A DNA stretch of 64,000 nt from Anaeromyxobacteraceae bacterium (GTDB taxonomy: Bacteria; Myxococcota; Myxococcia; Myxococcales; Anaeromyxobacteraceae), in NCBI GenBank assembly GCA_047602405.1, contig JASGHJ010000002.1:3680001-3744000 (forward strand), in the 5' to 3' direction. Positions within the stretch are counted from its first letter, which is position 1. Every line of letters begins with the position of its first letter. Below are positions 43,940 to 55,700 of this stretch, piece by piece. A program made the position numbers and the translations under genes. The notes under the pieces were generated by a model, which made no database searches, was not told the DNA's origin, and saw only the letters and a program-made list of their open reading frames with translations.

Positions 43940-45827
43940 GCGGGGCTGGTCCGGCGGATCGGGCCCGGGGTGCGCCTCGGCCGGGAGCCGGGCGTGGCCG
44001 CGCGCGCTCCGCGCGGTGGCCGCGGTCGCCCTCCTCGCCGCGCCGGCGCTCGCCGCCGCGCAGGCGCGCGTGACCGCGACGCTCGACGCCGCGGAGATCG
44101 CGCTCGACGAGACGGTCACGCTCACGGTGGTCGTGCAGTCCTCCGACGCGCCGCAGGACCTCCAGTTCCCGAAGGACATGCCGTTCACCGTGCTCGGGCG
44201 CAGCCAGTCGTCCGGCTCCTCGTTCTCGCTCGGCGGCGGCGCCGGCGTGCAGATCTCGCGGACGCTCACGCTCGTGCTGCAGCTCGCGCCGAAGCAGGCC
44301 GGCCGGCTCACCATCCCGCCGATCGCCGCCATCGTGGGCGGGAGGCGCTACGCGTCGGAGCCGGTCACGCTCGACGTCCTGCCGGAGGGGCAGCGCCCGA
44401 AGGCGCAGCCCGGCCCCTCGCTGCCGCAGCGGCTGCCGGGCCCGCCCGGCCCGCGCGGCGGCGGGACCTGGCGCGGCTGGGAGCGGGACCTCCGGCTCGC
44501 GGTCGAGGCCGACCGGACCGAGGTGTGGCTCGGCGAGCAGGTGGTGGTCTCGGCCTGGTTCGTCTCTCCGGTGCCGATCGTGAACGTCGAGAACTGGAAG
44601 GAACCGCAGTTCGTCGGGTTCTGGAAGGAGCTCCTCGACTCGCCGCACCGGCTCGAGGAGCAGGTGCGGGTCATCGACGGCGTCCCGCTGCGCACGTACC
44701 TCGTGAGCCGCTTCGCGCTCGTGCCGACGCGGTCGGGCGAGCTCACGGTCGATCCGTACCAGGCGCTCGTGAAGGTGCAGGCCGGGGTGAGCTCGCCGTT
44801 CGATCCGTTCCCGGACCTGCGGAGCGCCCGGCTGAAGAGCCAGCCGATCACCGTCAAGGTGCGGCCGCTCCCCGCCGGCGCGCCGCCCGGCTTCGCGAGC
44901 GTGAACGTGGGGACGCTGTCGCTCGAGGCGGCGGCCTCCGACGCGGCCGTGCCGGCCGGGCAGCCCGTGACGATCCGGGTGACCGCGAGGGGCGACGGGA
45001 ACGTGCGGGCGCTCGCGCTGCCGCCGGTGCCCGAGCTGCCCGGGACGCGGCGGTTCGAGCCGACGCAGTCGGAGAAGGTGACGACGAAGGGCGGCCGGCT
45101 CGGCGGGGCGCGGACCGTGGAGACCGTGATCGTGCCGGAGCGGGAGGGGGAGCTCGTGGTGCCCGCGCTGAGCTGGCCCGTGTTCGACCCCGCGCGGGGC
45201 GCCTACCAGACCCTCCGGACCGAGCCGATCCACATCTCCGTGAGTCCTGCAGGTGCGGTCGCGGCCCAGACGCCCATCGCAGGGGCGAACGCGCTCGGCG
45301 CCGGGCTCCGGCCGATCCGGGCGGACGGGAGCGACCTCACCCGGACCTCGCCGCCGCCGTGGCGCAGCCCCCTCTTCGTGGCCGCGCTGGCGCTGCCGGT
45401 GCTGGGCTTCGCCGGCCTGGGCCTCGGTCTACGACTCAGGGAGCATCAGGCCGCCGGCGCCGGCGCCCGCCGCACCCGGGCCGCCGGCCGGAACGCGCGG
45501 CGCCGCCTCGCCGCCGCGCGCAGGGCGCTCGGCCGCGGCGACCGTGAGTCGTTCTTCGCGGAGGTGGAGCGCGCCCTGACCGGCTACTGCGCCGACCGGC
45601 TGCGCGTCCCCGTCGGGGGACTCACCCGTGAGGCCCTCGGGAGGACTCTCGGTGGTGCAGGTGCGCACGGGCCAGCCGTGCAGGCGCTCGACGACGCGCT
45701 CGGGGCCTGCGACGCCGCGAGGTACGGGCGCGTCGGAGTGGGCGCCGAGGAGGCGCTGCTCGGCCAGGCAGAGCAGGCGATCGCGCTGCTCGACGAGGTG
45801 GACTGGTCTTCGGGGAGGGCGGCGTGA
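43920..45827 (+). CDS. batD: BatD-family protein
   Basis: GGAGG RBS; repeated Ig-like units (G.LTIPP, G.GN, FDP..GAY) and a C-terminal TM. Confidence 0.85.
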   Translation: MSNGTGERGWSGGSGPGCASAGSRAWPRALRAVAAVALLAAPALAAAQARVTATLDAAEIALDETVTLTVVVQSSDAPQDLQFPKDMPFTVLGRSQSSGSSFSLGGGAGVQISRTLTLVLQLAPKQAGRLTIPPIAAIVGGRRYASEPVTLDVLPEGQRPKAQPGPSLPQRLPGPPGPRGGGTWRGWERDLRLAVEADRTEVWLGEQVVVSAWFVSPVPIVNVENWKEPQFVGFWKELLDSPHRLEEQVRVIDGVPLRTYLVSRFALVPTRSGELTVDPYQALVKVQAGVSSPFDPFPDLRSARLKSQPITVKVRPLPAGAPPGFASVNVGTLSLEAAASDAAVPAGQPVTIRVTARGDGNVRALALPPVPELPGTRRFEPTQSEKVTTKGGRLGGARTVETVIVPEREGELVVPALSWPVFDPARGAYQTLRTEPIHISVSPAGAVAAQTPIAGANALGAGLRPIRADGSDLTRTSPPPWRSPLFVAALALPVLGFAGLGLGLRLREHQAAGAGARRTRAAGRNARRRLAAARRALGRGDRESFFAEVERALTGYCADRLRVPVGGLTREALGRTLGGAGAHGPAVQALDDALGACDAARYGRVGVGAEEALLGQAEQAIALLDEVDWSSGRAA

Positions 45828-46573
45828 ACCTCGCCATGCTCCTCGTGGCCTCCGTCACCTCCGCGGTGCAGCCGCAGCTGGAGGCGTCCGGGCCACCGGC
45901 CGCCCGCTTCGCGGCCGCCGCCGACGCCTACCTGGCCGGCGACTTCGGCACGGCCGAACGACTCTGGGACGCGCTCGTCTCCGAGGGGTATACGAGCGCG
46001 TCGCTCCACCTGAACCTGGGGAATGCGCGGCTGCGCGCGGGCCGGAGGGGCACGGCGATCGCCAGCTACGTCCGGGCGCTCCGGCTCGACCCGGGCGACC
46101 CCGACGCGCGCCACAACCTCGAGCTCGCCCGCGCGGCCAACGTCGACCGCCTGGTCGGGGGCACGGGACCGTCGCTCCTCGACCGCGTGGCCTCACGGAC
46201 GCCGAACGTCGCCGCCGCGCTCGCGTTCGCGGTGCCCTGGTGGCTGCTCTGGACGTGCCTGAGCGGCCGGCTCGTGACGGGGAGGCGCGCGCGCACCTGG
46301 CTCGGCGCGGGCGCGGCGCTCGCCACGCTCGGCGCGATCCTGGGCGGCTCGATCCTGCTCGCGCGTGACGCCGAGCAGCGCGAGGCGACCGCGATCGTGA
46401 TCGCACCCTCGACCGGCGTTCGCGAGGGCCCCGAGGAGGCGCTCCGCGCCACGACGATGCTGCACGAGGGGACCGAGCTGCGGGTCCTCGAGGCGCGCGG
46501 CCCTTCGGTGCGCGTGAAGCTCGTGAACGGGCTCGAGGGCTGGGTGTCGGCCCGCGACCTCGAGGCGATCTAG
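45824..46573 (+). CDS. batE: TPR plus SH3 protein, BatE-like
   Basis: NLGNA, ARHNL, TM segments and LHEGTE...GLEGWV. Confidence 0.82.
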   Translation: MNLAMLLVASVTSAVQPQLEASGPPAARFAAAADAYLAGDFGTAERLWDALVSEGYTSASLHLNLGNARLRAGRRGTAIASYVRALRLDPGDPDARHNLELARAANVDRLVGGTGPSLLDRVASRTPNVAAALAFAVPWWLLWTCLSGRLVTGRRARTWLGAGAALATLGAILGGSILLARDAEQREATAIVIAPSTGVREGPEEALRATTMLHEGTELRVLEARGPSVRVKLVNGLEGWVSARDLEAI

Positions 46574-46574
46574 T

Positions 46575-47468
46575 TCAGCCCGCGGGCGCACACTGGAACC
46601 CGAGCTGCACGCGCAGCTTGTAGGTCCCGGCCGGGAACGCGGTGGTGCGCAGGCCTCCCAGGAACAGGGCGAGGGCCGCCGCGTACTCCTGCCGGAAGAC
46701 GCGCAGGCGCACGAGCGCGTCGTGCCAGAGCTTGCCGTCGGTGGAGGCCGCCCGCTGCATGGACTGGCGCGGCTTCTCCTCCCCCGTGGCGCGGTCTCCC
46801 GGCTCCTGGGCCAGGACGGCCTTCAGGCCCAGGAACTTCTCGCCGGACTTTCTCACCGCCTCGATGGCCACCCGCTCGTGCTCGCGGATGCCCTTCTCGA
46901 GTGCCCGGCGAAAGTCTGCGGGCTCCTGTCCGGGCGGGACCGTGAAGGTGAGCGTCGCGCGGTCGGGCAGGGGCCCCGCCCGGCGGAAGAAGATCGGCGG
47001 GCGCTCGAAGACCATCCCCTTCCGGCCGATCGCCTCCGGGGCGGACCAGAGCCCGGGCCAGCGCTTGCTCCGCGGGATGAGCTTTGCCGCCGCCGGGTTC
47101 GCGAGCGCGTACGCGCCGTGCCCTGTGACCGCGGCCGCGTCCATGAGGTCGACCGACTGGTAGCCACCGCTCGGGAAGACGTTCTCGGAGCGGCCCCAGA
47201 GCTTGTTGAGGAAGCGGGCCAGCGTCGAGTTGAACTCCTGCATGAACGCGGGGAGCTCGCCCTTCGGGTCGGTGAGGACGAGGTGGTAGTGATTCGAGAG
47301 CACGCACGCGACGTGAAGCAGGATGCCGTGGCGCTCCGCCATGACGGCGAGCAGGAAGCCGAAGACCTGCCGCACCTCGGGGGTGGGCTTGAAGTAGAAG
47401 CGCCGCTCGAGACATCGATGCGTGATGAAGTGGGTGGTGCCCGGGAGCACCTGGCGTGGGGCCGTCAT
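46575..47468 (-). mobile_element. Solitary HUH/Y1 tyrosine transposase, RAYT-like (IS200/IS605 superfamily)
   Basis: HFITHRC, LSNHYHLV (HUH), FMQ, catalytic Y..NP (AYALANP) and W.G; no tnpB next to it. Confidence 0.85.
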
Positions 47469-47482
47469 GGCCTCGCGCCATG

Positions 47483-47498
47483 AGCACGCGGCGTGCCG
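47483..47498 (-). promoter_or_regulatory. Putative sigma54 (-24/-12) promoter of the transposase
   Basis: Minus strand CGGCACGCCGCGTGCT = GG-N10-GC with a GGCAC..TGC match, 14 bp before the ATG. Confidence 0.55.
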
Positions 47499-47612
47499 CA
47501 CGGAAACCGCTGCGGCCCAGCGACCCTCCTCCGAGCGGGGCGTCCGCGCCGCGGACCATGCGGACGCCCCGCGGACCTCTCGGTCCGCGAACGGGACTCT
47601 CGGGCGAGTCGC

Positions 47613-48980
47613 TCAGGCCACGCGCAGCTTCGCGATGAGCGCGGGCGGACCGCCGGACCGGAAGGCCTCGAGCGCCTCGTCCGCGGGCGACCGCCCGGAC
47701 TCGGCGCGCGCGCGGAGCGGCTCGAGGAACTTGCACTCGTCCTCGCCGCTGGCGGCGCAGCAGCTCTGCCGGCGCAGGCCGTCGGCCGCGGCGGCGAGCA
47801 CCTCCCCGGCGAGCGCCTGCAGCGAGCTCCCGTCCGCCGCCCGCCCCTGCAACCCGCTCCGCCCCGCGGCGTCCATGAGCGCGCGCCGCTCCTCGACCTT
47901 GAACCGCGCCACGGCCTGCCAGGCCCGCTCGCGCGCGGCCTGGTCGTAGAGGATGCCCTTCCACAGCGCGAGCAGCGCGCGGGCGTGGGCGTGGTCGCAG
48001 CCGTCGGCGGCGCGCACCTCCACGACGCCCTTCACCCGGACCTCCGGGAAGACGACCGTGAGGTGATCCTCCCAGTCGCTCTGGGTCGGCCGCTCGCCGT
48101 CGATGCCGCGGAGCATGAAGTCCCGGAACGTCGCGCCCTTCGGGTCGAGGTAGCGGTCGTGGCGCCGCACGAAGATCATCGGGACGTCGAGCGCCCACTC
48201 GACGTACGCGCGGTAAGGATCGTCGAGGAAGCCGGGCGCGAAGGCGAAGGCGAGGAGCCCGCAGCGGGCCGGATCGGTCTCGTTCCAGACCGCCGTCCGG
48301 TAGGACTTCCACCCCACCTCGCGGCCGTCGATGATCGGCGAGTTGGCGAAGAGGGCGACCACCGCGGGCTGCACGGCGAGGGCGGTCCGCAGCTTCTCCC
48401 CCATGTCGCGCGCGTCCGAGAAGTCGAACGACGCCTGCGCCGACGCGGTCATCGCCATCATGTCCTCGCCGAGCCGGCCGTGCGCGGCCAGCCAGGGGCG
48501 CATGATCTTGTAGCGATCCTTCGGCATCCAGGGGTTCGACCGGGGCGTGCCGAAGGGCCGGTAGCCGGTGGCGAGGAGCTCGACCGAGAGTTCTTCGCCG
48601 ATGTGCGCGCAGTGGTCCTCGAGGTGCTCGCGCAGCTCCTCCGCGGCCGCGTGGACGTCCGGGAACGGACGGCCGGACAGCTCGAGCTGGCCCCCCGGCT
48701 CGAGCGAGACCGTGAGTCCTTCTCGCTGCGCCGCGATGATCCGGTCCTCTTCCATGAACGGCGTGAAGCCGAAGCGCCCGAAGCCCCTCAGCATCGCGGC
48801 GACGCCGGCAGGGCCCTCCCAGGCGACCGGGTCGGTCGTGCCCGAGCGCATGAGCACGACCTCGTGCTCCAGGCCGACCTTCCAGCCCTGGCGGGGGCGC
48901 TCCCGTGCACGGAACCAGGCGACGAGGTCGTCGGGCCCGCGCACCGGCGGGGTCTCACGCGTGCGGGCGTCGAGGGACAT
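47613..48980 (-). CDS. gshA: Glutamate--cysteine ligase (GCS2/plant-like GshA)
   Basis: VGLEHE, SLEPGGQLELSG, WMPK.RY, FANSP, HLT.VFPEVR.K and EVRAAD. Confidence 0.93.
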   Translation of the reverse strand: MSLDARTRETPPVRGPDDLVAWFRARERPRQGWKVGLEHEVVLMRSGTTDPVAWEGPAGVAAMLRGFGRFGFTPFMEEDRIIAAQREGLTVSLEPGGQLELSGRPFPDVHAAAEELREHLEDHCAHIGEELSVELLATGYRPFGTPRSNPWMPKDRYKIMRPWLAAHGRLGEDMMAMTASAQASFDFSDARDMGEKLRTALAVQPAVVALFANSPIIDGREVGWKSYRTAVWNETDPARCGLLAFAFAPGFLDDPYRAYVEWALDVPMIFVRRHDRYLDPKGATFRDFMLRGIDGERPTQSDWEDHLTVVFPEVRVKGVVEVRAADGCDHAHARALLALWKGILYDQAARERAWQAVARFKVEERRALMDAAGRSGLQGRAADGSSLQALAGEVLAAAADGLRRQSCCAASGEDECKFLEPLRARAESGRSPADEALEAFRSGGPPALIAKLRVA

Positions 48981-49085
48981 GGGGACGCGGAATCTACCCG
49001 CGGGTGACGCGCTCCGCCACGGGCATGTCCGGGGTGCCCGTGCGTTCTACCCTTGAACGACTCTGGGACCTACGAGGCGATCCGG

Positions 49086-49114: not shown

Positions 49115-49191
49115 GAGCTTTTTCGGGGATTTCTCGCCCCTTGGACGTCCGAGAGTCGTTCGCCGCGCCTCCACCCCCGCAAAGAGCCACC

Positions 49192-52100
49192 ATGACCCGC
49201 CCGTTCCGGCCCCTCGCCACCATCGCCCTCGTCGCCGCGCTCGCGCTCGGCACGGGCGCGCACCTCGTCCGCGCCGAGGCGCGGCAGGAGGAGGACCGCG
49301 GGCGCACCGCCGCGGAGCTCGCCTACCGGGAGAAGGTCCCGTCCCAGGCCCGCCCCGACGCGGCGGGCGAGTACAAGCTCGACAAGCTCCAGATCCTCTC
49401 GAAGGTGATCCTGTCTCTCAAGGACTCCTACGTCGACCCGACCCGCATCGATCCGAAGGCGATGGTCGTCTCGGCGCTCGAGATGGTCGAGAAGACCGTC
49501 GCCGAGGTGATGGTCCAGGGCGACGCGAAGTCGTCGAAGCTCGTCCTCACCGTCGGCTCCGCGAGCCGCGAGCTCGACATCTCGGGCGTCGACTCCATCT
49601 GGAAGATCCGCACCGTGCTCGGCGACGCGATGGGCTTCATCCAGGAGCACCTCGTCGCGCACGACGACCTCCGGCAGATCGAGTACGCCGCCGTGAACGG
49701 CATGCTCTCGACGCTCGACCCGCACACCATCCTGCTCGAGCCGAAGGCCTACAAGGACATGAAGACCCAGACCCGCGGCGAGTTCGGCGGGCTCGGCTTC
49801 GTCATCGGCATGCGCGACGGCAACCTCACCGTGATGCGCGTGCTGCGCGGCACGCCCGCCCAGAAGGCGGGCATCAAGGCGAAGGACGTCATCACCAAGA
49901 TCGAGGAGCAGTCCACCGCCGAGATGGACGTGAACGACGCGGTCGACCGCCTCCGCGGGAAGCCCCGCACGCCGGTCGCGATCACCATCGCCCGCAACGC
50001 ACAGGACGCGAAGCGCCTCACGCTCGTCCGGGAGATGATCAGAATCGACACCGTCCCGCAGGCGAAGCTCCTCGAGGGCAACGTGGGCTACCTGAAGCTC
50101 ACCGGCTTCTCGGCGAACTCCCGCGCCGACGTCGAGCGCGTCGTCCAGGAGGAGCGCCAGCAGGCGGGCGGCAAGCTCGCCGGCCTCGTCCTCGACCTGC
50201 GCGGCAACCCAGGCGGCCTGCTCGAGCAGGCGGTCCAGGTCTCGGACCTCTTCCTCTCCTCCGGCACGATCGTGAAGACCGTCGGCGGCGGCCGCACCCT
50301 CGAGCTCAAGGAGGCGAGCGCCGACTCCGACGACCTCGCGAACCTCCCGCTCGTCGTGCTCGTCAACAACGGGTCGGCGTCCGCGAGCGAGAATCGTGGC
50401 GGGCGCGCTCAAGAACAACGGCCGCGCCCTCGTCATCGGCCGCCAGACCTTCGGCAAGGGCTCGGTGCAGGTGCTGCAGGACTTCGCCGAGCCGGGTCGC
50501 CCGGGCGAGGAGGCGGCGCTCAAGCTCACCATCGCGCAGTACCTCACCCCGGGCGACGTCTCGATCCAGGAGGTCGGCGTCACCCCCGACGTGCTGCTCC
50601 TCCCCGGCCGCGCGCTCAAGGAGCAGGTGAACTTCTTCGCCCCGCCCCGCTCGATGGGCGAGGTCGACCTCGACCGCCACCTCTCGAACCCGTCGCAGCG
50701 CGACGAGGAGCAGGAGCGCGCCGAGGCCCGCAAGCGCCGCGTCGAGAAGTCGGCGCTCGAGCTCCGCTACCTGCTCGACGAGAAGGAGGACTCGGTCGCG
50801 AAGGCGCTCAAGAAGGCCGCCACCGAGGACGCCGCCGAGAACGCCCACACCGATCTCACGCCCGAGCAGGTCGAGGACGAGGAGGCCGACGCCGACCCCG
50901 ACCGCGTGGTGGAGGACTACCAGATCAGGTTCGCGCGCGACCTCCTGCTCAAGGCCCCGTACAACGATCGCGCGCGCATGCTCGAGGGCGCGAAGACGCT
51001 CGTCGCCGAGCGCCACGAGGACGAGGAGCGGCGCCTGGAGGCCCGGCTCAAGGACATGGGCCTCGACTGGTCCGAGCCCGCGAAGACGCCCGCCGGCGCT
51101 CCGAAGGCCGTCGTCACCTTCTCTCCGCCGGCGGCGAAGGACGCGCGTGCGGGCGAGGTCTACCCGTGGACGGTGACCGTCGAGAACCGGGGCGACGCGC
51201 CGTTCCGGCGCCTGCGCGCCTGGACCTCCGCCGAGAAGAACCCGCTGCTCGATCGCCGCGAGTTCATCTTCGGCACCGTCCGCCCGGGTGAGCGCCGCTC
51301 GTGGACCGTGCCCGTGCGCATGCCCCGCAGCCTCGACAGCCGCCGCGACGAGGTGTCCCTCCGGCTCGAGGACGACTCCGGGAAGCCCATCCCGGAGGTC
51401 GCGACCTCGGTCGGCGCGGTCGAGATCCCGAAGCCGCAGTTCGCGTTCAGCGTGCAGGTCGAGGACGCCGCGGGCGGGAACGGCGACGGCCTCGCGCAGC
51501 GCGGCGAGACCTTCGCGTTCCGCGTCGACGTCCGGAACGCCGGCTCCGGCGCCTCCGGCCGCAAGACCTACGTCGCGCTCCGCAGCCTCGGGGACGACAA
51601 GCTCTTCGTGAAGAAGGGCCGCGAGGTCATCGGGACGCTGAAGCCTGGCGAGGCGAAGACCGCCCGCCTCGAGGTCGAGCTGCGCAAGGGCTCGCACGCC
51701 GAGAACGTGCCGTTCCGGCTCGCCATCGTGGACGAGAAGACCGACGAGTACCTCGTCGACAAGATCGAGTGGCCGGTCGCGAAGGACGCGACGCCGCGCA
51801 CGCCCGCCTCGGGCGCCGTCCGGCTCGACGCCGACGTCACCATCCACGGCGGGGCCTCCGAGACCTCGCCGGCCGTCGCGTCCGCGAAGAAGGGCGCCGT
51901 GCTGCCCGTCGACGCCCGCTTCGGCGACGCGTACCGGGTCGAGTGGCAGAAGGGCCGTTTCGGGTTCGTGCCGGTCGCGCAGGCGAAGCCGGTGAAGGCG
52001 CCCCGCTCCGGCGCGGTCGCGATGGCCTGGCAGCGCGAGCCGCCGCGCATCGCGCTCGCGCCTGACCCGGCGAAGGGCGCGCCCGTCGTCGAGGGCGACA

Positions 52101-52405
52101 CGATGAAGCTCTCCGGCTCCGCCACGGTGCCGGCCTCGGCGGACGACTCGACGCGGCTCCGGGACGTCTTCATCTACGTGAACGACCAGAAGGTCTTCTT
52201 CCGGGTCGTGCCGGACGAGAAGGCCTCCACCCGCCTCGACTTCCAGGCCGACCTGCCGCTCAAGCCCGGGCAGAACACGGTGACCGTCGTGGCCCGCGAG
52301 GACGAGGAGTTCCAGACTCGCCGCTCGCTCGTGGTGTTCCGGCGCGCCCCGCCGGCCGTCGCGCAGGACGGCTCGCGCGAGCCGCCCAAGGCGCAGGCGC
52401 AGTAG
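49192..52405 (+). CDS. S41/CtpA-family carboxyl-terminal protease (PDZ, peptidase, Ig-like and SH3-like tail); one extra base at ~50392-50393
   Basis: LDPH, GEFGGLG, DLRGNPGGLL and SASASE in one frame, then IVAGAL, TFGKGSVQ and KLTIAQY in the next; removing one A from GAGAATC joins them. Confidence 0.9.
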
Positions 52406-52418
52406 GCGCAGCCCGAAA

Positions 52419-52480
52419 ACGACGCACGGACCCAGGGAAGGCGCGGCGCTCCGCCCCCTCCGGGGAGTCCGTGCGCTCGT
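52419..52480 (-). terminator. Long hairpin between the peptidase and the repeat array; the short U-tract is on the minus strand
   Basis: ACGA-CGCACGGAC (52419-52431) pairs with GTCCGTGCG-C-TCGT (52467-52480); AAAA at 52416-52419 on the + strand. Confidence 0.45.
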
Positions 52481-52484
52481 CCTG

Positions 52485-52638
52485 ACGACTCTCGGTCGTC
52501 CAACATGAACGACTCTCGGTCGTGCAGCTCGCCTGACGACTCTCGGTCGTCGAAGGTCGACGACTCTCGGTCGTCGAAGGTCGGCGAACGACTCTCGGTC
52601 GTCCAAGGGCCGGGGGGCCCGGAACGACTCTCGGTCGT
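52485..52638. repeat. Array of six identical 15-bp palindromes ACGACTCTCGGTCGT with 9-21 bp spacers
   Basis: Copies start at 52485, 52509, 52536, 52560, 52588 and 52624. Confidence 0.95.
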
Positions 52639-52792
52639 CGAGGAGTGCCCGGAACCCCCCGCCGTGATCCGGCCGATACCGCCCGACACCGCCCTGGCGA
52701 GCGTGCGCTCGGCAGGTGGTATCGGCGACCTGCCTCACTCGCCCGTCCCCAAGTTCGCGAAGCGCCGGATCGCCCGGTAGAATTCCGCTCGC

Positions 52793-55700
52793 ATGGCGGA
52801 GGCTCCGAAGACCGCCTCCGTCCCATCCTCCACCTCCGGGAAGAGGACAGGGTCGGGGTTCGAGCTGCGCCTCGAGCGCGGGACGGCACACGTGCGCCTC
52901 GCGCGCGTGCCGGTCGTCGACGGCCTCGAGCTCGAGGTGCTCGACCTGCTCGTCCCGGACGTCCGCTTCCCCTTCGACGTCGCCGCGGGCTCCGGGCAGT
53001 TCCGGCACCGACTCTCGGACCTCGACGAGCTCGGCGTCGCCGCCGCGCCCGAGCTCGCGGAGCGCACGGTCGCCGCCGCGGGCCCGGAGGCGCTCGGGCT
53101 CCTCGACCTCCGGATCGCGTTCCGGGACGGCTTCGCCGAGCTCGCCGGCCGGCTCGCGGGCGGCACCCGCTTCACGCTCCGCGCCGGGCTCGTCCCCGCC
53201 GGCGACCGCGGCGTCGCGGTCGTCCTCCACGCCCCGCGCCTCTACGGCCCGGCCGCCCTCCCCGAGGGCGCCCTCGTGCACGCCGGCCGCCGCCTCCTCG
53301 CGGCGCTCGGCGAGGACGCCTTGCCCGAGGATCCCGTCTCCCGGCTCCTGCGCCGCGTGCTCGCGCCGCGCGGCTGGAAGATCCCGCGCGCCGTCGACGT
53401 CCGGCTCGCGCGCGCCGAGATCGTCGCGGGCGCCGCGCGGCTCGGCTGGTCGCGCGCGGCCGTGCCCGCGGCCGTCTCCGCCGACCCGGACCTCCTCGCG
53501 GCCGAGGAGGGCGCCCGCACCTTCGCCGCCGCCGAGGCGCTCCTCGAGCGCGGCGACCACGAGGCCGCCCGCGAGGCGTACCTCGCGACGCCCGCCGCGG
53601 CCGGCCACCCGTTCGCCGCCGAGCGGCTCCTGGGCCTGCTCGCGCTCGACGACCGCTTCCACGACGAGGCCCTCGACCTCGCCCAGGCCTGGCTCGCGCG
53701 CCGCCCCGGCTTCCCGGCCGCGCTCGGCGCCGAGGCCGCGGTGCGCATCGCCCGCGGCGAGGAAGCCCGCGCCGCCCGCGCCCTCGCGGAGCTCGCGGAG
53801 GGCGCCGCCGCACGCGGCGAGGTCTTCTCCGCGCTCGCCGCCGCCGAGACCGCGTTCGGCCTCACCGGCGCGGACGCCGCCGTCGCGCGGCGCGCCGCCG
53901 AGGTCGCCCTGCAGGTCCGCCGCGACCACGTCCCCGCCCTGCGCGCGCTGCGCGACCTCGCCCTCGCCGCCGGCGACCGCGAGGCGCTCGTGCGCGCGAG
54001 CCGCCGGCTCGTGGCGTACGACGCGGACCCCGCCCACAAGGCCCGCGCCCACGCCCAGCTCGGCGAGCTCCTCCTCGGCACCGACCCCGCCGCGGCGCGC
54101 CTCCACCTGGACCAGGCGCTCCGCCACGCGCCCGACGAGCCCCAGACCCTGCGCTCGCTCGCCCGCGCCTGCGAGGCGGCCGGCGAGCACCTCCGCGCGG
54201 TGCGCGCGCTCGACCGGCTCCGCGAGCTGCACCTCGCCCACGGCGACCGCGCGCTCGCGGCCGGCGCCGCCTACGAGGCCGGCGCGCTCTGGGACGGCCC
54301 GCTCGACCACGCCGAGAACGCGCTGCTCCGCTTCCGCGAGGCGGCGGAGCTCGCGCCCTCCGCCGAGGCCCACGAGCGCGCCGCCGGCGCCGCCACCCGC
54401 GCCGGCCAGTGGGCCGAGGCCGCCGACCACCACGCCGCGGTCCTCGCCGCGCTCGCCCGCGGGGCGCCCGGCCCGGCCGGCCTCGCCGCGCGCACCCGCG
54501 TCGCCCTCGCGGCGATCGCCGAGGAGCGCCTCGCCGACCTCCCCGCCGCGGCGGCCCACCTCGAGGCTGCGGTCGCGCTCGAGCCCGACCGCGGGGACCT
54601 GTGGCGCCGGCTCGCCGCCCTCGATCGCACCCTCGGCCGCACCGCCGCCCTCGCCGCCGCGCTGGAGCGCGTCGCCGCCCTCTCGCCGGACCTCGCCGAG
54701 CGGGCCGCCGCGCTCGCCGAGGCCGGCGAGGCCGCGCTCGCCCTCGGGCTCCCCGCCGAGGCGCGCGGCCGGTTCGTCGCGGCGCTCGCCGCCGACGAGC
54801 GGAACCGCACCGCCCTCGACGGCCTCGCGCAGCTCGCAGCCGCGCGCGGCGACGCCGCCGCCGAGCGCGACGCCCTCGCCCGCCTCCTGCCGCTCGCCGC
54901 CTCCGCCGACGAGACCGCCACCCTCCAGGACCGGCTCGCCGAGGCCTGCGAGAAGGTCGGGGACCTCGCCGGCGCGCAGCGCGCCCTCGCCGCCGCGCGC
55001 GCCGCCGCGCCGACCGCGGCCCGCCTCGAGGCCTCGCTCCGCCACGCCCGCCGCACCGGCGACGTGCCCGCCCACGCCGCGCTCCTCGCCGAGCGCGCCG
55101 CCGCCGCCGCGGCCCGCGGCGACGCGGCGCTCGCCACGACGAGCTGGCTCGAGCGGGCCCGCCTCCTCGGAGCGACCGATCCCGCCCAGGCCCAGGCGGC
55201 GCTCGCCGAGGCCCGCGCCGCCGCGCCGGGCGATCCCGAGGTGCTCCGGGCCCAGGCCGCCTTCGGCGAGGCGAACCGCGAGCCCCGGCTCGCGCTCGGC
55301 GCGCTGCGCGCGCTCCTCGCCCAGGATCCCGCCGACGCCTCCGAGCTCGAGGTCCGCGCCGGCCGCGCGGCGCTCACCGCCGGCGAGCCGACCGCCGCCC
55401 GCGAGCACGCCGAGCGCGCCCTCGGGCGCGACGCGCCCGGCGCCGGCGAGCTCCTCGCCGACATCCTCGACCGCACCGGCGACGAGGCCGGCCGCGCCGA
55501 GCTGCTCGAGCGGATCGGCCGTCCCCTCGAGGCCGCCCGCCTCCACGAGCGCCACGGTGACCGGCCCCGTGCCATCGCCGCCCTCGAGCGCGCCGCCGCC
55601 GACCCCGCCTCGGCCTCCGAGGCCCTCGGGCTGCTCGCGGAGCTCCGCCTCGCCGAGGGAGACCGCCGCGGCGCCGCCACCGCGCTCCTCGCGCTCGCGG

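Follow-up and report, generated by a model that had tools for sequence, protein, structure and literature searches.

The six identical repeats between an S41 peptidase gene and a giant TPR-repeat gene are most likely additional copies of the end of a nearby Y1 transposase element, and not a regulatory RNA. They lie in a window of 64,000 nucleotides (by the window we mean the whole stretch of DNA analysed), taken from a 6.16-Mb genome that we call G000. An earlier note, made from the letters alone, had read them as a protein-titrating small RNA of the CsrB/RsmZ kind and had offered an operator array or a REP-type cluster as alternatives. The feature is real and that lead reading is wrong. The array very probably arose by local amplification of the terminal-repeat motif that belongs to the element at 46574-47612, which is a TIRYT-type Y1 transposase element, of a type that is known but barely studied; under this explanation no function of the array itself is required. 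The features concerned are collected in Table 1.

Table 1. Coordinates, in the window, of the array, the Y1 element, the further motif copies and the flanking genes
Feature	Position	Strand	Remarks
In-register motif copy in batD	45538..45552	-	2 mismatches here; exact (15/15) in the close relative G010
In-register motif copy in batD, AGG ACT CTC GGT GGT	45642..45656	+	GRTLGG vs A/G-D/A-A-L-x-x in 5 outgroups
In-register motif copy in batE, GAA CGA CTC TGG GAC	45958..45972	+	W vs Y in 3 aligned outgroups
Y1/HUH tyrosine transposase gene, 297 aa, TnpA-Y1 class 2, TIRYT type	46575..47468	-	stop abuts batE stop
GGCAC-N7-GC element	47484..47497	-	16 nt before transposase start
Degenerate upstream end, CCTCTCGG (47576) and ACTCTCGG (47596)	47574..47609	+	at the family's -100 position
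In-register motif copy in gshA, GAA GAA CTC TCG GTC	48575..48591	-	S here; G in 12/15 outgroups, S in none
Satellite copy AACGACTCTGGGAC in gshA-peptidase spacer	49057..49071	+	
Satellite copy upstream of peptidase start	49145..49159	-	1 mismatch; 13 flanking bases common with array copy 5
MXAN_5808-family S41 peptidase gene, resident	49192..52405	+	frameshift near 50392 in present assembly
GC-rich hairpin 3' of peptidase stop	52416..52480	+	in G010 its 5' arm is another motif copy
Six direct copies of the Y1-element end motif ACGACTCTCGGTCGT	52485..52638	+	orientation of the element's upstream end; 5.0-5.2 kb upstream of transposase start
TPR-gene promoter-like element TTCGCG-18-TAGAAT	52754..52783	+	conserved with or without array
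Giant TPR-repeat gene, resident, 3212 aa	52793..62431	+	
Motif core in TPR gene	53008..53022	+	synonymous CGG-to-CGA; in G000 but not G010

A recount in the window bore out the six exact, same-orientation copies of ACGACTCTCGGTCGT, starting at 52485, 52509, 52536, 52560, 52588 and 52624, with the spacers of 9, 12, 9, 13 and 21 bp that had been described. The contrast between invariant repeats and differing spacers, previously taken to suggest selection on the motif, holds as a matter of counts, but the spacers are not independent of one another: they are partly duplicated, with perfect repeats of 25, 20 and 19 bp extending past the 15-mer. Array copy 5 and the inverted copy at 49145, 3.4 kb away, have 6 flanking bases in common on the 5' side and 7 on the 3' side. 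The long hairpin said to bound the array also exists, the region 52406-52485 folding at -40.1 kcal/mol, although a terminator scan makes no call on it; judged by eye, many array-less relatives have a hairpin at the peptidase stop too. In the peptidase gene itself, the contigs of relatives have one base fewer at about 50392, and the frameshift there is therefore an assembly error or a strain mutation.

The protein encoded at 46575-47468 belongs to a conserved family. In an alignment of 48 homologues H60-x-H62 and Y120-xxx-NP (N124, P125) are invariant, and the REP-associated tyrosine transposase model NF047646 matches all 48, the window's protein scoring 44.7 bits, under the 80-bit cut-off. Its structure model (pLDDT 91) retrieves TnpA-REP (4er8) at Foldseek rank 1 with an E-value of 6.8e-5, followed by IS200/IS605 transposases, while a Pfam search of the protein found no HTH at E<=1. 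The NHYH and YALANP motifs fit TnpA-Y1 subclass 2.1 or 2.3 alike. The protein was found in 14 of 151 genomes in a search of the phylum, and a related-locus search of genome contigs returned a single locus, labelled Anaeromyxobacter, with an 82%-identical copy. Relative to its closest relative the transposase gene has a dN/dS of 0.31 (neighbouring genes, 0.06-0.21) and is under purifying selection despite the decay of the element's ends: the upstream end is degenerate, and partly lost in G010, and no copy of the downstream end is left. The variant that makes up the array, with its TCGT tail, is unlike that degenerate upstream end. In 46 of 51 family genes a GGCAC-N7-G[CG] element lies 14-20 nt before the start. 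We take the window's version to resemble a sigma54 promoter, albeit a putative one; if it is of that type, the transposase would be under activator control.

We surveyed the motif in 51 regions of 20 kb, of which 40 came from homologue matches (chosen by score and contig size), 7 from G000 and 4, L053-L056, from the motif itself; these regions are related and not independent. The core ACTCT[CG]GG occurs in 41 of them and is absent from the other 10. Its orientation is strictly ordered about the gene: the 34 sites at -350 to 0 all share one direction, and the 59 at +900 to 1400 all have the opposite one. The sequence nACTCT[CG]GGTC is thus the inverted end motif of a Y1/HUH element family of the TIRtron/TIRYT type, and a position table of the 93 terminal copies reads R-(T/G)-T-ACTCT[CG]GG-TCGGG. 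Likeness among four near-identical element copies in G000 ends just outside the motif variant at both ends. In other genera, the core stands at the expected end positions in 6 of 8 loci of the same family and in none of 3 more distant loci. The 5-bp palindrome is an incidental feature of this end motif: it is complete in 12 of 201 copies, and the family consensus cannot form the hairpin of the array units.

Arrays are likewise a recurrent product of the family. The 51 regions hold 15 tandem arrays of at least three copies, distributed over 12 regions, with variable spacers and in some cases 3.4 and 6.8 kb from the gene, and loci beyond the 51 regions hold arrays of 10, 7 and 6 copies. Each locus has its own version of the motif. 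Copies within a locus agree at 6.84 of 10 variable positions, compared with 4.83 after shuffling (0 of 2000 shuffles), and satellite copies, those away from the element's ends, resemble the ends of their own gene (5.75 vs 4.94; 8 of 5000 shuffles). The association can also be approached from the DNA, using at least 79 metagenomic loci chosen solely for a tandem pair of cores. Among the pairs listed, 8 of the 12 with the full consensus adjoin a family Y1 gene, compared with 1 of the 67 others (p 1.6e-7), and the four full-consensus misses are contigs of 1.2-7 kb. A scan of metagenomes for exact tandem 15-mers found nothing.

Satellite copies concentrate within about 6-7 kb of the Y1 gene. Across the 51 regions there are 2.0-5.3 of them per 20 kb in flanking bins between -7.5 and +6.4 kb, and 0.35-0.79 per 20 kb farther out, as against 0.11 in G000 away from Y1 genes; any satellite at all is present in only 25 of 64 regions. 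G000 contains 58 core sites, 24 of them near three Y1 genes, and around the window's gene there are seven further cores between 45645 and 53011. The exact 15-mer occurs in 5 of 37 genomes of the genus. G015, G007 and G003 have one copy each, in every case at another locus and 4-5 kb from a homologous transposase gene; one exact copy in G010 (L057) has no Y1 match within 20 kb. An orphan near-exact copy, again with no Y1 gene nearby, is found in G000 at C1:1978065 (L034/L057), and the exact G010 copy sits in what is apparently the same upstream region. A second Y1 gene of G000, at C2:3481500-3487600 (L048; L110), has a halo of its own built from the variant ACTCTGGGACG. Within 8 kb on either side of C1:1420948 in G000, around a distant Y1 homologue (25% identity), another 9-mer, GTCCGGCAC, is enriched, with 22 local occurrences out of 501 genome-wide, which suggests a like halo behaviour with another motif.

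Comparison of orthologous regions separates the motif from its neighbourhood. Among 30 loci found by their flanking DNA, the exact palindrome is confined to G000 and its close relative G010. The G010 spacer has four copies where G000 has six, with other spacers and two of the copies variant; most halo sites are common to both genomes, and the last array unit of G010 matches G010's own versions of the 49057 and 49145 sites instead. Fourteen orthologous regions without a Y1 match contain a single core in 221,317 bases, only 4 of the 14 spanning the batE-gshA junction, and the motif is absent from two empty batE-gshA junctions. G013 carries an independent, 40%-identical Y1 insertion between batE and gshA, and its own variant of the motif stands both at the end of that element and in the very peptidase-TPR spacer that contains the array in G000. 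From the near-absence in Y1-less regions and this independent insertion with its motif, we conclude that the motif follows the element. The gene order batD-batE-gshA-peptidase-TPR is ancestral, being intact in four Y1-less relatives and in G013, and the intervening genes are therefore not cargo. It is also equal in G000 and G010, and the idea of an invertible segment between 49145 and 52588 found no support.

Five motif copies lie in register inside host genes, two in batD and one each in batE, gshA and the TPR gene, with no gap relative to 3-15 outgroups. Four of the five contain rare codons (GAA, CGA, CGT, AGG, ACT or GGT) in genes whose GC3 is 95.5%, and four of the five bring residue changes. 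At one batD site a Gly-to-Asn codon difference gives the perfect 15-mer in G010. For coding DNA of about 13 kb, the chance of containing four strict cores is of the order of 1e-7, a rough value whose background comes from a crude gene caller; its coding/non-coding split overcalls coding sequence and labels even the array as coding, for which reason the coding count and P value of that split are set aside. In a wider check, 9 of 95 satellite sites could be aligned to a G000 protein: six are in-frame expansions in one kinase gene pair, one is a one-residue difference and two lie at a divergent gene end. This wider test gave few usable cases, so the case for overwriting rests mainly on the window's locus. 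As an observation in its own right, the histidine-kinase gene beside the second Y1 gene (L048/L110) has in-frame motif expansions of 21-48 nt that differ between G000 and G010.

Judged by their sequence, the in-gene copies look as if they had been written over near-matches, with the transposase as the candidate agent. We put forward tentatively, as a possibility that falls somewhat short of probable, that the Y1 family is a cis-acting DNA writer, which would paste its 13-17-nt end motif over near-matches less than about 6 kb away, in register and within host coding sequence (Y to W in batE, G to S in gshA, and in batD), and would go on bringing its copies, and entire paralogous elements, into line with the version now present at the locus. 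In the literature searched, we found no description of enzyme-driven, templated, position-restricted mutagenesis by an HUH nuclease. The 1.2-kb Y1 element as a whole appears, from sequence comparison, to undergo concerted evolution in G000 and G010. Four paralogous elements (C2:3257133, C1:2221352, C2:2523920 and C2:581814 in G000; L097, L143, L092 and L144 in G010) occupy orthologous places; identity is 97-99.7% among the four of one genome, about 90% between orthologues and 91-95% in the flanks.

A mechanism for the array can be proposed by analogy with E. coli TnpA-REP. The enzyme would bind the end motif on single-stranded DNA, nick at variable CT-type sites and remain joined to the 5' end through a phosphotyrosine. 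Pieces of motif plus flank could then be added at nearby sites, mostly in cis, by strand transfer or by extending the free 3'-OH. In spacers, arrays with variable junctions would build up, ordinary slippage helping, while in genes selection would leave only in-frame insertions or in-register replacements. Several observations count against deriving the array from the element's end. The window's element has a degenerate upstream end and lacks the downstream one, and the array variant differs from what remains; part of the array, the 25-bp perfect duplication, could be plain slippage; and 10 of the 51 regions are core-less, satellites are restricted to 25 of the 64, the L057 copy has no Y1 gene, and the regions are related.

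The regulatory readings fare worse. CsrB/RsmZ sponge RNAs combine multiple short repeats, variably spaced within a single intergenic region, with GGA loops displayed to CsrA/RsmA. The array resembles them in the number, shortness and variable spacing of its repeats within such a region. A minus-strand RNA showing six CGAGA loops would fit the observations that this strand folds better than shuffles (z -4.36) and that a single unit folded alone makes a 5-bp stem. When the whole 387-nt region is folded, however, only one of the six copies has a probability above 0.5 of forming its own hairpin, whichever strand or span limit is used; the loops are CGAGA/TCTCG and not GGA, and the array is not conserved. 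Scanning the array region for sigma70-like promoters and terminators called none, in agreement with the earlier note, which had identified no promoter for such an RNA. A search for CsrA (PF02599) did not find it in the 98%-complete genome; the same search was positive in 3 of 14 control genomes. Two further checks, the Rfam scan proposed in that note and a comparison of orthologous loci, went against the RNA: Rfam gave nothing at gathering level, its six matches being weak and far under cut-off (a guanidine-II match was dropped at 15.2 bits against a cut-off of 32), and the exact palindrome was limited to 2 of the 30 orthologous loci. Because the palindrome is incidental, the six hairpins are not predicted together and CsrA was not found, the sponge RNA is unsupported, and we consider it extremely unlikely. 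Binding of a dimeric host regulator to the array, as a multi-site operator controlling the TPR gene or the peptidase, would account for a palindromic 15-mer placed 116-270 bp upstream of the TPR promoter-like element, and for single copies upstream of the peptidase as well; but the palindrome is a lineage variant (12 of the 201 copies), 16 of the 21 loci examined retain the promoter-like element, mostly in the absence of an array, and the motif tracks Y1 genes at unrelated loci. This reading is accordingly weak, and we hold it to be very unlikely. The third of the earlier readings, a REP-type cluster, came nearest. The units are, however, copies of TIRYT-type terminal repeats confined to the element's neighbourhood and not genome-wide GTAG REPs: a genome-wide search placed the exact 15-mer at one locus only, and for this reason a genome-wide REP family is rejected.

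Two other readings accept the link with the element. The end-derived copies might be kept by selection as putative binding sites of a domesticated Y1 protein, serving titration, autoregulation or local DNA organisation, the in-gene copies having arisen by point mutation and selection. The constraint on a gene whose ends have decayed, and the sharing of most halo sites by G000 and G010, count in favour of this; yet copy number (six against four), spacers and variant differ between these two close genomes, and the in-gene copies cost several non-synonymous changes and rare codons in genes of such extreme GC3, so that we rate this as improbable. Alternatively, the array could be the outer end of a former composite element with gshA and the peptidase as cargo, as its upstream-end orientation and its position beyond two genes would allow. 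The ancestral gene order largely refutes this, satellites are found in either orientation on each side and within genes, and we give it hardly any credence.

Among the closest described systems are the TIRtrons, whose RAYT-like Y1/HUH gene lies between terminal inverted repeats that have no relation to GTAG REPs (Di Nocera, De Gregorio and Rocco 2013, PMC3733652). According to the same source, copies of these repeats can form dimers or clusters and belong to moderately abundant families, and a GGGGWSAS consensus is reported for some TIRYTs, other TIRs being without it. The present family likewise has a Y1 gene with HUH and catalytic tyrosine, non-GTAG inverted repeats flanking the gene (true for the family, the window's copy keeping only its degenerate upstream end), and clusters and satellites away from the gene, though these are local rather than genome-wide. 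Its core, by eye against the table of 93 copies, is ACTCT[CG]GGTCGG and thus unlike GGGGWSAS; and the accessible text of PMC3733652 describes no few-kb confinement, variable-junction direct arrays or in-register gene copies for TIRtrons. In the TnpA-Y1 classification of Quentin et al. (2018, PMC6006769), class 2 subclasses 2.1 and 2.3 have Y-xxx-NP, an NH[YF]H-type HUH, a long C-terminal tail and several divergent copies per genome with no canonical REPs, and subclass 2.1 is prevalent in delta-proteobacteria and probably equal to TIRYT. All of these traits, Y-xxx-NP, HUH type, long tail, divergent copies and lack of canonical REPs, are found here; unlike here, the available part of that paper reports no REP-like flanks for 2.1 and 2.3 and no satellite halo. 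RAYT Group 1 is described as the most IS-like group (PMC5581495).

The E. coli REPtron supplies the chemistry for the analogy. The nicks that TnpA-REP makes in single-stranded DNA fall at CT, some way from the repeat to which it is bound, and in vitro the enzyme recombines REPs and joins them in tandem (PMC3333891); excision-integration and primer-extension models have been proposed for REPs (PMC3333891, PMC8266576). The window's array resembles REPtrons and BIMEs in the fold of the enzyme (4er8), in tandem arrays with variable linkers and in strain-variable copy number, and the nicking, strand-transfer and local-amplification model, with cleavage at CT, may apply here by the same chemistry. 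Unlike REPtrons, it lacks a GT[AG]G foot in units and consensus alike, a conserved hairpin, REP/iREP pairing within the array and a dispersed high-copy family, and the element has recent multi-copy relatives. Literature searches returned neither a distance-limited halo nor in-register copies, although figures or supplements of the cited papers may list the motif; nor did they return an Anaeromyxobacter repeat with an HUH transposase, and the motif strings matched only unrelated primer-type sequences among the matches listed.

One false sRNA candidate is removed by this analysis, and a rule follows for these genomes, namely that a Y1 gene is to be expected no more than about 7 kb from a short direct-repeat array with variable spacers. 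The way in which RAYT/TIRYT enzymes disperse and multiply their repeats is given as unresolved in the accessible part of PMC8266576. The Y1 family leaves dated, locus-specific traces, in the form of arrays, flanks common to several sites and in-register gene copies, so that a single 297-aa protein and a 15-nt motif suffice to put the question to a direct test. If overwriting were enzymatic, it would be a source of clustered amino-acid change in genes adjoining the element, and the enzyme would be a compact template-directed editor.

The peptidase-TPR spacer, compared across relatives, looks like an insertion-tolerant site. In L003, L004, L018 and L020 it holds 1.7-6.8 kb of unrelated inserted genes, and in L005 (G020) it is occupied by a low-complexity tract of GTGGAC/TTCGAC units arranged in inverted blocks.
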